Under the pieces are notes generated by a model. That model was not told where the DNA came from. It was given only the letters and a program-made list of their open reading frames with translations, and searched no databases. This document shows, piece after piece, positions 59,333 through 63,109 of a DNA stretch of 64,000 bases. Each line of letters starts with the position of its first letter. Positions within the stretch are counted from its first letter, which is position 1. The position numbers and the translations under genes were made by a program. This stretch comes from Giardia intestinalis (taxonomy: Eukaryota), in the NCBI GenBank assembly GCA_000002435.2, contig CM018792.1; one strand, written 5' to 3'.

Positions 59333-62300
59333 TTACTTTCTAAAGTCCCAGCAGTCCCCGTTGTTTGAAAGCTGGCCGCTCTTAGTGAAGATACTGGTGG
59401 TGCTATCCACGGGGTCGTAGACACGGCTCACAGACATCTCCGTCGCCGTGCAATCTGATATCATGGGGAAGAGCTCGCTATCGGTCAATGACACCACACT
59501 CATGCTAACCTCGATCATCGTCTCCTTGTAGTCCTTCGAGCGCATGAACTCCATACTATAGAGGTACCTGAACGTGACGTTCTGGCATATTCCACCGAAG
59601 AAGAGCCCGGCCCAGATGAGGTACTGGCAGAAGAAGATGGCTCCGAACGTCTCCAAGAGCCCCGTCCCCAGCGTCAGGCTCCTAATGCTCTCGGGGACCA
59701 CCTCTAATACGTAGGGAGTCGCCAAGCCCTTGGGCCCTGCCAGGATGTCCAGGAGCCTATTGAGCTGGACGTCGAGCGGCTCTATCACGTGCTTGTTGAC
59801 GGTACTTCCAAGCTCCATCAAAAGCGTGTCGTACATATGCTGAGAAAACCGCGGGTACAATCCTCCGGACAGGTTCTTCGAAACCATGTTTGCTTCGATG
59901 ATATCTAAGAGGATGGACAAAGGGGAGACTACAGCGTTGAGCAGCTCTGTGTATGCATCTATGAAGCTGACCTCATCGGTTGAAAAGCTACTCCAATCTT
60001 TAAACACATCCACAAACCGCTCATAGACCCTTGTTGTGTCTAGCACCACATCTAGTGCCCCGCTGGAGCCATCGTTCGGATTGCTCGCAGCATTCCAGCC
60101 AATCGTCTGGAAGCCCTTTTCCTGAAGCGCATACACGAGGTCTCGCACGGCTGCGTATGTGTTGGAGACGCAAATGGAGGTCTGTTCTACGGTGTCACCT
60201 GGGCGGATCTTCGTGCACAGGTTTCCAACGAGGTCTGGGTATGGAGACCCGTGGACGATGGAGGACAGGCTAGTGGAGATGCTTGGACACGAAGTCTTGA
60301 GGTTGGTTAGTTCGGCTCTTATCTTCTGCATTGTGCTCTTAATACTGCCCTGTGAACACAGATTCTTATCGACGGGGTTATCGGCAAGGAAGGTCACCGA
60401 GGGGCACTTTGTCATAGCGACCAAAGTATCCAGAAAGTGAATCATGGAAAGGCACTCTGCGACTATCCCCTTCTGGCCCCTAACGGCTTTGGCACTGGCT
60501 TCGAGGGACAGGGCGCTATAGTTCGCGCTGGAGGAAATGCCTCTGATATAGGCCTCAACCTGCGCTGTGACATTCATGGCAGCCAGAGCAGATGCATCAA
60601 CATCTCCGTACAAAGCTGTGCGCTTTTCTGTACTGGAGTATGTGTCGTTATATAGCTTGTGCCCTGCAGAGAAGTCCCCGAACAGGACGGCGTTCGAGAG
60701 CTCGCCACTGAGGAACGCGTTCCTAATCCCGCTAAGAAACGGATCAATGTCCGGAACAATGAAGGTCTCGAGGTACTGTGAGAGGCTGGAGCGGGGGTTG
60801 ATAGCTTCGGGTAGCACCGCGGGCAGCAGTCCTTGGAGCCCGCCCAAAAGATCCGGCAAGCCGAGGATATCGAGGATCCCTCCACCCTTCTTGTTGTAAT
60901 AGAGGAGGTCTTTGATGGACATGCGAGTTGTATCCACCCTCGTGGAAAGGCTCAGAGAGGCCATGCTGTCGTCAGGTTCGGCAGGAATCCCAAACATGCT
61001 CGGCAGGTTTCCGACGGCAACGGTAGCTGTCACGTTGGCGAGGCTCTTACGGAGAGCATCGTATGTGGTGTAATCCAGCACGGCGGACGACGGGGCTGTG
61101 TAGGCTAGGTCGGGGTGCCCCGTGTGCCGGAGCACAAAGGATCCCAGGTCCAGCTGGACCGGCGCAGGGTCTCCTATGACTCCGTTGTCTTTGAGGAGTT
61201 GGAGGACGGTGTCGTAGTTGTTGCGCAGAAGCTTGTCTGGGTTGGTGAGGAGCCCCGAATAGTACTCCAGAGCGAACTTCTGCAGAACCACCGCGACGAT
61301 CCCGAACAGCATCAGGAAAAGCGACACCCAGCAAACAACGCACCCGTTGCAGCACAAAGAGCAGCCAGCGCACCTCGTCTTGAAGCGCGCAGCGCCCACG
61401 ATCCCGCAAATGAACGTCCCGATTGGGACGAGGAGAAGAGCCAGGGCGAGCAAGAAAGGGGCCATCGATATCAGAACGTAATTGCGGCCAGCAGGCGGAA
61501 TCGTTGCCGGATCAAACCCAGAGAGCTTGCAATTCTTCAACGAGTCCAACGCACCGCCTTCTACAGGCAGGTCTGTTATGTAACCGGGGCAGGCCCCGTT
61601 GTTTATGAAGGCGTCGAACAGAGCACGCGCAGTCATCTGCTCCTTGTGGTCGTGGAGTTGCAGCACGTAGTTGATGTACTTGGAGAAGCTGGAGACCTGT
61701 GTCAGGGCATCGGTTGCGAGCTTAGGCAGGTTCAGCTGGTCGCTGATAGATCTGGCGAGCTCTTCGTCTGTTGGTCCTCCCTCGGCCCGCGTGGCAGACG
61801 CACACCACGATAGCTTGCCCTTAAGTGCCGGCTTGCCACACGCCCTCCGGACTATGTCCCCCACGGTTTGCGTCTTCGTGCTGAGTACTTCAAGCAAGTC
61901 AACGAGTAGTTGTGTGTCATCCTTACTCTGCTGTTTGCCAGACGCCTTCGGCCTTAACGAGTCTATAACGAACTTTATCACTATTTCGGGGTTGTTGTTG
62001 ACCGGGACATTCAGATCTGCTCTGTCAATAGGTGAATCGGAGGCAGCAGCAACACTGGACTTTGTTGTGCAATAATTATTTCCTGAGTTATCCTTAAAGA
62101 CCTGCTTGCACACCTTTTCAATGATAGTTTGCCAATTTCCTTGACCTGGTGGTTGCTGCTTATCTAGCGACTTCGCTATCCCGTTGGTGATAGAATTGGC
62201 CGCAAAGACAGCCCCGCCAATAAGAGACTTCTTGTTGATGTTCTTGTAGCTGGCCTCGGAGATTGCCGTGTCATCGGGTGGAGACGGAGGTTGCGTTGAT

Positions 62301-63109
62301 CGTATAGAGAAGTTGCCATAATTTTGCTTGCCTTCTAAACTCTTCTTTACTGATTCTTGCGTCTTTGTGTTCAACAATAAATCTAAGTTTTTCTGTATGT
62401 TATCTGAGAAATCTGTGATAGCACTCAACGAGGGTAGGGACGCAGGCGGCAGAAGGATGGTGCTGACCCCCTCTGCCAGCGAGGAATTCTGCGACAAGAC
62501 ATCAGAGACCACCCTCAGCGTGCAGCTCTTGGAAATCGCGCTTATGTACTCGCTGACCTCGTCTGCTGTTTTATTCAAGATATTGGAGATTGGGGAAATG
62601 GAACTATTATCTGAGCTCGAGATGAGCGCGTTTATAAGACTGTCTGAGGTGCTAATGGTGTCCGAAGCCAGATCGTAGACGCGATCGGTCGTTCGAGCCA
62701 CGACCCGGAACATGTTGTCCATGCCAATGAAGGGCTGGGAGACGGCGACGAACATCCCGATGCATCCGCAGAGGCCGATGACGTTGGCAGCGAGGCCCGT
62801 GTAGAAGCAGCAGCAGCGGTACTTGCTGGATGTCTGCTCCATCTCCAGCTTCCGGTGGCAGCATCTGCGACAGCACTGGCTACACCGGCAGGGGGCTATG
62901 CAGACGAGCGCAATGTTGAAGCAGAGCCCGAGGACAAAGGGAAGAACAAGCAGGACGCCCATGGCAACCAGGAGCGGAAGATACGGCTTGAGGGCAGCCA
63001 TGACATCCACTCCCCCGCCCTGGTGCATGAACAGGTTGGCCGTATCTATGATTGTTTCCGGCGGCACCCTCGGGAAGAACGCCGTACTAAAGGCCGTGAC
63101 CCCCATCAA
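59333..63109 (-). CDS. large pentaspan-like membrane glycoprotein (1258 aa) with Cys-rich juxtamembrane loops; prominin-like topology
   Basis: TM1 is followed by CRCSQCCRRCCHRK, then TM2 and a ~350-aa loop. TM3 is followed by CAGCSLCCNGCVVC, then TM4, a ~540-aa loop, TM5 and a ~70-aa tail. Confidence 0.5.
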   Translation of the reverse strand: MMGVTAFSTAFFPRVPPETIIDTANLFMHQGGGVDVMAALKPYLPLLVAMGVLLVLPFVLGLCFNIALVCIAPCRCSQCCRRCCHRKLEMEQTSSKYRCCCFYTGLAANVIGLCGCIGMFVAVSQPFIGMDNMFRVVARTTDRVYDLASDTISTSDSLINALISSSDNSSISPISNILNKTADEVSEYISAISKSCTLRVVSDVLSQNSSLAEGVSTILLPPASLPSLSAITDFSDNIQKNLDLLLNTKTQESVKKSLEGKQNYGNFSIRSTQPPSPPDDTAISEASYKNINKKSLIGGAVFAANSITNGIAKSLDKQQPPGQGNWQTIIEKVCKQVFKDNSGNNYCTTKSSVAAASDSPIDRADLNVPVNNNPEIVIKFVIDSLRPKASGKQQSKDDTQLLVDLLEVLSTKTQTVGDIVRRACGKPALKGKLSWCASATRAEGGPTDEELARSISDQLNLPKLATDALTQVSSFSKYINYVLQLHDHKEQMTARALFDAFINNGACPGYITDLPVEGGALDSLKNCKLSGFDPATIPPAGRNYVLISMAPFLLALALLLVPIGTFICGIVGAARFKTRCAGCSLCCNGCVVCWVSLFLMLFGIVAVVLQKFALEYYSGLLTNPDKLLRNNYDTVLQLLKDNGVIGDPAPVQLDLGSFVLRHTGHPDLAYTAPSSAVLDYTTYDALRKSLANVTATVAVGNLPSMFGIPAEPDDSMASLSLSTRVDTTRMSIKDLLYYNKKGGGILDILGLPDLLGGLQGLLPAVLPEAINPRSSLSQYLETFIVPDIDPFLSGIRNAFLSGELSNAVLFGDFSAGHKLYNDTYSSTEKRTALYGDVDASALAAMNVTAQVEAYIRGISSSANYSALSLEASAKAVRGQKGIVAECLSMIHFLDTLVAMTKCPSVTFLADNPVDKNLCSQGSIKSTMQKIRAELTNLKTSCPSISTSLSSIVHGSPYPDLVGNLCTKIRPGDTVEQTSICVSNTYAAVRDLVYALQEKGFQTIGWNAASNPNDGSSGALDVVLDTTRVYERFVDVFKDWSSFSTDEVSFIDAYTELLNAVVSPLSILLDIIEANMVSKNLSGGLYPRFSQHMYDTLLMELGSTVNKHVIEPLDVQLNRLLDILAGPKGLATPYVLEVVPESIRSLTLGTGLLETFGAIFFCQYLIWAGLFFGGICQNVTFRYLYSMEFMRSKDYKETMIEVSMSVVSLTDSELFPMISDCTATEMSVSRVYDPVDSTTSIFTKSGQLSNNGDCWDFRK

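Follow-up and report, generated by a model that had tools for sequence, protein, structure and literature searches.

Giardia is a deep-branching parasite that lacks microvilli and depends on cholesterol uptake. Prominin-1 (CD133) serves as a stem-cell marker, and mutations in it lead to retinal disease; how the protein works is still debated. A long reading frame in the window (the whole 64-kb stretch of Giardia intestinalis DNA that was analysed) raises the question of whether this parasite has a prominin of its own, since the original prediction, made from the letters alone, gave its product the pentaspan layout of that family. The product is probably a raft protein of the prominin type that has diverged very far, an interpretation supported by prominin-like architecture and by weak sequence signals.

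The gene and its product

The reading frame is real and lies where it had been predicted, with its start moved. The ORF listing begins at a TTG at 63109, with an in-frame TAA immediately 5' of it, and the first ATG is at 63106. Because of the TAA directly upstream, there is no longer N-terminus and the start is assigned to ATG 63106. The product is identical to GL50803_0060774 of G. intestinalis WB (XP_037902062.1, UniProt A0A644F6L3), which is currently labelled "hypothetical protein". A short A/T-rich initiator region just before the ATG is usual for Giardia genes, and AGTRAAY is the Giardia polyadenylation motif; candidates for both are listed in Table 1 with the parts of the protein. An Rfam scan of the 64-kb window gave no match.

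Table 1. Features of the pentaspan gene in window coordinates. TM boundaries were read from a hydropathy plot and are uncertain by several residues.
Feature	Position	Strand	Remarks
CDS, pentaspan protein, with stop codon (59333-59335)	59333..63106	-	1257 aa
A/T-rich stretch (caattagtacaaataataatt) 5' of the ATG	63108..63128	-	sequence read; holds the in-frame TAA
N-terminal 42 aa, inferred extracellular	62981..63106	-	hydropathy
TM1, aa ~43-73	62888..62980	-	hydropathy peak 2.78
Cytoplasmic loop 1, aa 74-101, 8 Cys and 7 K/R	62804..62887	-	Cys cluster at TM1 boundary
TM2, aa ~102-125, family-invariant Q124-P125 at its end	62732..62803	-	hydropathy and alignment
Large extracellular loop 1, aa 126-544, 419 aa, 7 Cys, 4 N-x-S/T sequons	61475..62731	-	
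TM3, aa ~545-572	61391..61474	-	hydropathy
Cytoplasmic loop 2, aa 573-589, 5 Cys and 3 K/R	61340..61390	-	
TM4, aa ~590-612	61271..61339	-	hydropathy
Large extracellular loop 2, aa 613-1152, 540 aa, 6 Cys, 5 sequons	59651..61270	-	
TM5, aa ~1153-1176, with FFCQYLIWAG motif; W1165 codon 59612-59614	59579..59650	-	
Cytoplasmic C-terminal tail, aa 1177-1257	59336..59578	-	poorly conserved in the paralogue
AGTAAAT, overlapping the stop codon	59331..59337	-	sequence read; fits AGTRAAY

Conservation and family members

Full-length orthologues were found in assemblages A, B and E. Compared with an allele of 98% identity, the gene has a dN/dS of 0.205, and its first 125 codons differ by seven synonymous changes and no nonsynonymous ones. 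Because of the orthologues, this dN/dS and peptides detected by mass spectrometry, it is a constrained and expressed gene and no chance ORF. Among the large segments, constraint is lowest in extracellular loop 1 (dN/dS 0.42), where assemblages A and B are 55% identical. Cytoplasmic loop 2 is 94% identical between the same assemblages, and conservation across the Giardia family is highest in TM5. W1165, within TM5, is the sole Trp that is invariant across all four family members.

A paralogue, GL50803_16888 (UniProt A8BG86), has an overall identity of 30%, against 54% in TM5. It shares the architecture (its UniProt entry gives 'Transmembrane (5)'), the N-terminal motif (the first 12 aa, MGVTAFSTAFFP, are kept) and the raft-only proteomic pattern; it differs in a shorter ICL1 Cys cluster, a much shorter tail and the lack of any Pfam match. 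A reading of P0030 as a G. muris orthologue was rejected, since it is a paralogue from the same genome. A profile search of 1.84 billion representatives, run with trimmed sequences, returned only P0002, P0003, the paralogue and one further relative, with no annotated prominin at E <= 0.001. A word-indexed search with a four-sequence profile gave no further members, and a metagenome scan found no relatives. P0031 is the distant member of the family; a 1281-aa gene that adjoins it is unrelated.

Topology and cysteine clusters

Bell et al. 2024 (PMC11405016) curated prominins by five TMs, outer loops above 300 aa, inner loops below 25 aa and homology, and described putative prominins outside animals, excavates included. 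In the Giardia protein, a Kyte-Doolittle plot (19-aa window) rises above 1.6 in exactly five segments, arranged 2+2+1, which bears out the predicted number. There are no charged residues within TM1-TM3 and TM5, and hydropathy reveals no separate signal-peptide-like segment in the 42 aa before TM1. Loop 1 carries 7 Lys or Arg, loop 2 carries 3 and the first 18 tail residues carry 4, compared with 1-2 in each outer flank, so that the positive-inside rule, the sole basis for orientation here, supports N-out/C-in with the large loops outward. The two external loops would then hold more than 75% of the protein mass. The second loop has the predicted length of ~540 aa, whereas the first, put at ~350 aa, measures ~419 aa; the tail is present, at 81 aa and not the ~70 aa proposed. 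The cytoplasmic loops are ~28 aa (loop 1, within the uncertainty of its hydropathy boundaries) and 17 aa (loop 2), compared with the curated limit of 25 aa. Altogether, the five TMs, the orientation, the outer loops of more than 300 aa and the Cys cluster at the TM1 boundary support the prominin topology that had been suggested.

Both predicted Cys-rich loops were found as quoted. The one after TM1 has eight Cys within 28 aa (CRCSQCCRRCC...CCC), with the boundary itself reading C69..C73-R-C-S-Q-C-C-R-R-C-C, and the one joining TM3 and TM4 has five within 17 aa (CAGCSLCCNGC). A Cys cluster at the boundary of TM1 and the first cytoplasmic loop is a hallmark of CD133 (PMC10967083), and by analogy the TM1-boundary cluster is a candidate for palmitoylation. 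The N-terminal Met-Gly was also considered for N-myristoylation, which is unlikely because position 6 is Phe and P0031 has no such Gly. The N-glycosylation scan proposed for the large loops adds nothing: they hold 9 sequons in 959 residues, with ~10 expected by chance on a rough estimate from composition.

Pfam matches and controls

The only Pfam family matched by the whole protein is Prominin (PF05478; E 1.8e-5, 23.5 bits), with aa 49-195 aligned to profile positions 91-233. The match spans just the TM1-loop-TM2 hairpin and the beginning of loop 1, and its score is below the curated gathering score of 34.3 bits. The 98%-identical allele scores 25.1 bits, and an independent precomputed annotation reads 'Prominin (weak)'. 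Neither of the outcomes named in advance as counting against the prediction, a different TM count or orientation and a match to an unrelated family, was seen.

The N-terminal 260 aa alone score 21.4 bits, and 19 controls (one reversed and 18 locally shuffled versions of this region) reach at most 15.1 bits, leaving the real sequence at least 6 bits higher. At E <= 10, Prominin is missed by 15 of the 18 shuffles and picked by the other three, at 12-15 bits. The Prominin match is thus weak but order-dependent. At E <= 1, the assemblage-B orthologue and the paralogue have no Pfam match, and the window protein does not match Tweety (PF04906; gathering score 31.8 bits), the family of TTYH1-3. When C-terminal and TM3-TM4 fragments from each of the four family members are run separately against Pfam, they match neither Prominin nor Tweety. 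P0031 matches Tweety in the same hairpin (aa 43-135, E 2e-4, 20.5 bits) and not Prominin. A prominin-1 sequence itself scores 1028 bits against Prominin and 24.2 bits against Tweety, again in this hairpin; because it cross-matches Tweety at a similar score, the Tweety match of P0031 cannot tell the two branches apart.

Profile comparisons with PROM1

A profile of 16 mammalian prominin-1 sequences (PROM1) was aligned with the Giardia family by hhalign. The TM5 region scores 25.0, against a control average of ~14.5 (sd ~3) and 13.3 for the reversed profile, and in each of three shuffling schemes at most one shuffle in 100 equals the real score. In this alignment FFCQYL------IWAG stands opposite a 16-letter stretch of PROM1, pairing W1165 with PROM1 W786 (human W795) and C1160 with the Cys of FLCSY. 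Human Trp-795 is nearly universal and the most conserved residue of prominins (PMC11405016), and the invariant W1165 within a strongly conserved TM5 gives the Giardia family a parallel to this. An extended alignment is co-linear, with each TM opposite its PROM1 counterpart.

The N-terminal match scores 40-49. The reversed PROM1 profile scores 43-46 and 17 of 100 fine shuffles equal the real value, so much of this signal comes from the composition 'TM, Cys-rich loop, TM'. The full-length match (probability 52-67%, E ~1e-4) was set aside as evidence because reversed and shuffled controls reach the same score, and the alignment obtained with -glob was nonsensical. With an HMM built from the mammalian PROM1 sequences, every score on the Giardia family was negative and none rose above those of shuffles.

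Neither the protein nor the family profile matched any PDB sequence at E <= 10, and a search with the prominin-1 sequence found no relative there either. AlphaFold2 models were unusable both for aa 36-1200 (6 sequences; pLDDT 39.8, pTM 0.29) and for aa 540-1200 (9 sequences; pLDDT 35.4, pTM 0.23). At this low confidence they are mostly helical, with helices continuing from TM2 and TM4. Foldseek with the first model against the PDB gave nothing at E <= 0.001, only noise.

Raft proteomics

In the mass spectrometry of Grajeda et al. 2022, peptides of A0A644F6L3 were found only in Triton-resistant fractions rich in GM1 and cholesterol, with a raft signal of 11.3 in the control, 8.2 with nystatin and 4.4 with oseltamivir. 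The paralogue A8BG86 was likewise raft-only (36.3, 15.3 and 7.2 under the same conditions). The raft fraction also holds many cytosolic and cytoskeletal proteins, and there is a single column per condition (Grajeda et al. 2022); because of this impurity and the one column, raft specificity is weak evidence. Both proteins had zero signal in large and small vesicles (Grajeda et al. 2022), where low abundance could hide their presence. Their absence speaks against the release on vesicles that is part of prominin biology. The same study ties cholesterol/GM1 rafts to attachment, encystation and vesicle release.

Weighing the alternatives

On balance, within the prominin/Tweety-homology pentaspan superfamily, the protein probably falls in the prominin branch as a very divergent member, and common ancestry with prominin is likely but short of proven. 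A diplomonad-specific pentaspan protein could instead have converged on the same layout and serve an unrelated function, such as lineage-specific surface or adhesion work. The tiny family would fit this account, with only Giardia orthologues, one paralogue and one relative among the representatives and an empty metagenome scan, as would the fast evolution of loop 1, the sub-threshold Pfam score with no match for the assemblage-B orthologue and the paralogue, and the ability of shuffled sequences to reach Prominin and of reversed and shuffled profiles to equal the N-terminal hhalign score. Convergence is nevertheless rather unlikely: the real sequence exceeds every one of the 19 Pfam controls, TM5 has a PROM1-specific match (about 1 in 100) with its invariant Trp and its Cys aligned to their PROM1 counterparts, and the agreement in architecture covers five features, among them where the Cys cluster lies.

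Membership in the TTYH branch, which would bring lipid-facing extracellular domains and weaker cholesterol binding, is suggested by the Tweety match of P0031 and by the five-TM topology that TTYH also has, but TTYH outer loops are ~120 aa and there is no Trp-795 analogue (PMC11405016). The Giardia loops of 419 and 540 aa, the invariant TM5 Trp aligned to Trp-795 and a window protein that matches Prominin only, together with the cross-match of prominin-1 itself to Tweety, make this assignment improbable. A channel or transporter, with the five hydrophobic segments as a permeation pathway, is very hard to credit. Its case consists of the presence of several TM segments, and of the historical naming of TTYH as chloride channels (PMC8273234); no Pfam transporter or channel family is matched, most of the mass lies in the external loops, and four of the five segments are free of charge.

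Proposed role and significance

If the protein is of the prominin type, it would expose two long, mostly helical outer loops and keep two short basic Cys-rich loops and the 81-aa tail in the cytoplasm. By analogy with prominin-1, the Cys clusters may be S-palmitoylated, and the palmitoylated Cys and the TM bundle, including the TM5 Trp, could direct the protein to microdomains of the trophozoite plasma membrane that are rich in cholesterol and GM1. There the protein might interact with cholesterol and help to organise or stabilise curved or specialised membrane, for instance the flagellar membranes or the ventrolateral flange, and it is probably not shed on vesicles. Palmitoylation, cholesterol interaction and membrane shaping are all carried over from prominin-1.

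A bolder reading, possible though less likely than not, is that Giardia has retained two genuine homologues of prominin and that these organise its cholesterol/GM1 rafts. In that case both the prominin/TTYH fold and raft-linked membrane shaping would be as old as the last eukaryotic common ancestor, and both could be dissected in a simple cell that is open to genetics, with W1165R as the equivalent of the human retinal-disease mutation W795R. A pair of prominin-type proteins in Giardia would give a function to two large surface proteins, so far "hypothetical", of a major human parasite and tie them to rafts linked with attachment, encystation and vesicle release. It would also offer a minimal system for the roles of the Cys clusters and of the conserved Trp in TM5. 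Prominins beyond animals, including those of excavates, have already been published in general terms (PMC11405016), and the advance lies in the specific assignment rather than in a novel kind of protein. In the literature searched, no paper linked prominin with Giardia and none named GL50803_0060774.

Comparison with prominins and TTYH

The Giardia protein shares with TTYH1-3 the five-TM topology and its orientation, along with the weak cross-match of the TM1-TM2 hairpin through P0031. It differs in the length of its outer loops, in the invariant W1165 where TTYH has no conserved TM5 Trp, and in its lack of a Tweety match. We know of no juxtamembrane Cys cluster in TTYH.

Compared with prominins, the Giardia loops are 1.5-2 times the animal length (~255-290 aa), a second Cys cluster is present in inner loop 2, and there is no signal peptide, the outer N-terminus being 42 aa and not a domain of ~85-100 aa. 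A six-residue gap precedes the TM5 Trp relative to PROM1, the tail has no similarity to that of CD133, the protein was not detected on released vesicles, and the Pfam score lies under the curated threshold. The likenesses to prominin-1/CD133 are the 2+2+1 arrangement of TMs, a pair of very large outer loops, a pair of short, basic inner ones, a cytoplasmic tail, recovery from a detergent-resistant, cholesterol/GM1-rich (if impure) fraction, the Cys cluster where TM1 meets the first inner loop, and a TM5 Trp-x-Gly that follows F-[FL]-C-x-Y-[IL]-[IL].

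Gene and membrane layout

The window protein is 100% identical to GL50803_0060774 of strain WB C6 (XP_037902062.1, UniProt A0A644F6L3), which is annotated as "hypothetical protein". Its minus-strand ORF runs from 63109 to 59333 and is listed from an opening TTG, because the ORF calling takes the first ATG, GTG or TTG as start. The codon right after it is an ATG (63106-63104), and the A/T-rich stretch upstream of that ATG contains a directly adjoining in-frame TAA, so the protein is 1257 aa long. The stop codon is overlapped by AGTAAAT, a match to the Giardia polyadenylation motif AGTRAAY. 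Orthologues are the allele P0001 (98% identity), a partial assemblage E protein (GLP15_2771, 84%) and assemblage B GSB_151049 (62-64%). Against the 98% allele the gene has a dN/dS of 0.205 and no nonsynonymous change in its first 125 codons; dN/dS in loop 1 is 0.42. The gene is under purifying selection.

The original prediction was of a prominin-like pentaspan protein, and Kyte-Doolittle hydropathy (19-aa window, cut-off 1.6) gave five segments above the cut-off and no more. They follow a 42-aa N-terminus without a separate hydrophobic segment. The loop after TM1 has 28 aa with 8 Cys and 7 K/R, and the TM3-TM4 loop has 17 aa with 5 Cys and 3 K/R; by the positive-inside rule these loops and the tail would be cytoplasmic and the large loops outside, which agrees with the short Cys-rich cytosolic loops that had been proposed. 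The second large loop has the predicted 540 aa, but the first has 419 aa rather than about 350, and the C-terminal tail is 81 aa, not about 70. The suggested N-glycosylation scan was uninformative, with 9 N-x-S/T sequons in the large loops, about the number estimated from composition alone.

Positions of the hydrophobic segments, the two relatives and other features of the window
Feature	Position	Description
TM1	aa 43-73
TM2	aa 102-125
TM3	aa 545-572
TM4	aa 590-612
TM5	aa 1153-1176
Paralogue P0030	L004 6001-9588
Distant relative P0031	L001 10001-13834	contig SRR31929897_12639 (run SRR31929897), gene-dense, ~55% GC
442-aa ORF	193-1521	no Pfam match
Variant-specific surface protein gene	1821-3776 (+)	after the 442-aa ORF
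DNA polymerase epsilon catalytic subunit	4204-11976
Inverted repeat, as assembled	12339-20633 and 37535-45829	8,295 nt, arms 100% identical, 16.9 kb spacer
GPN-loop GTPase	21624-22400
Ankyrin plus coiled-coil protein	22477-30453	2658 aa
Beta-giardin (SF-assemblin)	52631-53449
Sfi1-like protein gene	56272-58779
161-aa ORF	63 nt downstream of the window-protein gene	same strand; no Pfam match
RING-finger gene	near the window-protein gene
MatE transporter, C-terminal part	63377-63997	cut by the window end

The genes flanking the window-protein gene are unrelated to the prominin finding. Elsewhere in the window, the arms of the inverted repeat have about 67% GC, against 43-47% in spacer and flanks, and hold plausible genes for ankyrin-repeat (749 aa), WD40 (570 aa) and CHY zinc-finger (394 aa) proteins. 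The opening 2 kb, where the 442-aa ORF lies, is also GC-rich (64%).

Family of the Giardia protein

When a profile built from the Giardia orthologues was run against 1.84 billion representative proteins, only four matched at E <= 0.001: P0002, P0003, P0030 and P0031. A metagenome scan for further relatives added none. P0030 (1195 aa, 30% identity) is a paralogue from the same genome, GL50803_0016888 (UniProt A8BG86), with the same five-TM layout. P0031 (1277 aa, 19% identity) is the sole relative found outside G. intestinalis, and may come from an unsequenced Giardia-like diplomonad. In all four family members the TM segments are arranged 2+2+1 and the inner loops are rich in Cys. The best-conserved segment is TM5, which is 83% identical when assemblage A is compared with B, 54% with the paralogue and 33% with P0031, and W1165 is the only Trp invariant across all four.

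The N-terminal dodecapeptide MGVTAFSTAFFP (window 63071-63106, aa 1-12) is near-identical in the paralogue and partly retained in P0031, with M1, F6 and P12 invariant. Conservation at the extreme N-terminus is unusually strong for proteins so divergent.

Pfam evidence and controls

The whole protein gave a single Pfam match, Prominin PF05478 (E 1.8e-5), in which aa 49-195 align with profile positions 91-233 at 23.5 bits, short of the 34.3 bits set as gathering score; the collection's precomputed annotation also reads "Prominin (weak)". The 98% allele scored 25.1 bits to the same family. The Pfam search gave no match for the assemblage-B orthologue or the paralogue, and P0031 matches Tweety PF04906 instead (20.5 bits, same hairpin). 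Because TM segments and Cys-rich loops can yield spurious matches, controls were run on the N-terminal 260 aa, which by themselves score 21.4 bits to Prominin. These were reversed (n=1) or locally shuffled in blocks of 4 to 12 residues (n=18); 16 of the 19 controls had no Prominin match, and the other three scored 11.7, 13.6 and 15.1 bits.

Profile and structure comparison

A PROM1 profile was built by aligning 16 mammalian PROM1 sequences, fetched from the database with a human prominin-1 query. In a Pfam check this query scored 1028 bits across the whole Prominin model, and its aa 103-238 matched Tweety with 24.2 bits. In the hhalign comparison, Giardia 46-238 aligned with PROM1 93-252 (probability 52-67%, E about 1e-4). 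This N-terminal match was rejected as prominin evidence: the reversed PROM1 profile scored 43-46 against 40-43 for the real one, and the real score was reached in 17 of 100 fine column shuffles. The TM3-TM4 region was not significant against PROM1.

The TM5 region scored 25.0, against 13.3 for the reversed profile and a shuffle mean of about 14.5 (sd about 3), and shuffles reached the real score 1, 0 and 1 times per 100 under three schemes. The alignment, whose Giardia side reads TGLLETFGAIFFCQYL------IWAGLFFGG, pairs W1165 with PROM1 W786, which is Trp-795 of the 865-aa human isoform, and C1160 with the Cys in PROM1 FLCSY. Both pairs appear again in an extended co-linear alignment that places each TM on its PROM1 counterpart.

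The TM3-loop-TM4 hairpin (window 61145-61471, aa 546-654) also aligns to the PROM1 TM1-loop-TM2 hairpin with an hhalign score of 37, so the two hairpins of the window protein (aa 546-654 and aa 47-235) resemble one another. This resemblance could come from an ancient internal duplication, or merely from shared composition.

AlphaFold2 models were poor because only 6-9 related sequences exist (aa 36-1200: pLDDT 39.8, pTM 0.29; aa 540-1200: pLDDT 35.4, pTM 0.23), and were mostly helical at low confidence. Foldseek with the low-confidence aa 36-1200 model gave no PDB match at E <= 0.001, and PDB sequence searches gave no match.

Raft and vesicle proteomics

For WB trophozoites, Grajeda et al. (2022) examined "lipid rafts", gradient fractions that resist Triton X-100 and are enriched in GM1 and cholesterol, together with large and small released vesicles, each with and without nystatin or oseltamivir (PMC9445159). 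The raft values for control, nystatin and oseltamivir are 11.31, 8.22 and 4.38 for the window protein (A0A644F6L3, 136 kDa) and 36.25, 15.31 and 7.24 for the paralogue (A8BG86, 129 kDa); both proteins are 0 / 0 / 0 in large and in small vesicles (Supplementary Table 1, PMC9445159). Both were detected only in the raft fraction, with a signal that fell on raft disruption, and are therefore made in trophozoites. The pattern is compatible with a prominin-type raft protein, but is weak evidence: numerous proteins of the cytosol and cytoskeleton occur in the raft fraction as well, and each condition is given by a single column in the table. The lack of vesicle signal counts against the part of prominin biology that concerns vesicle shedding.

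Which family

We consider the window protein to be probably a very divergent member of the prominin branch of the prominin/TTYH superfamily. The main rival is a lineage-specific pentaspan protein that converged on the prominin layout. It bears on this that, from the scores of the reversed and shuffled controls, the "TM, Cys-rich basic loop, TM" pattern is prominin-like by itself, worth at most about 15 bits; the true residue order contributes a further 6-10 bits, and TM5 has its own alignment to PROM1. Convergence seems to us unlikely, at perhaps one chance in a few. Placement in the TTYH branch is more doubtful still, since neither the loop sizes nor the TM5 Trp agree well with it: TTYH proteins have loops of about 120 aa and no equivalent of Trp-795 (PMC11405016). 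Bell et al. (eLife 2024) curated prominins across eukaryotes, excavates included, by exactly this architecture, and the TM5 Trp (human Trp-795) is conserved in nearly all of them (PMC11405016).

If the protein is a prominin, its Cys clusters may be palmitoylated, by analogy with the cluster at the boundary of TM1 and the first inner loop that a CD133 review gives as a possible palmitoylation site (PMC10967083). By the same analogy, the TM bundle and TM5 Trp could interact with cholesterol, and the protein might organise curved or specialised plasma membrane.

Comparison with known prominins

Prominins are already on record from outside the animals, among them unnamed "excavate" ones (PMC11405016); the literature searched held no paper linking prominin and Giardia, and none naming this gene or its paralogue. 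The main point of interest is a testable role for two large uncharacterised Giardia membrane proteins. Compared with animal prominins, the window protein lacks a signal peptide, its outer N-terminus is short, its loops are 1.5-2 times longer, its second inner loop carries an extra Cys cluster, and its tail is unrelated.
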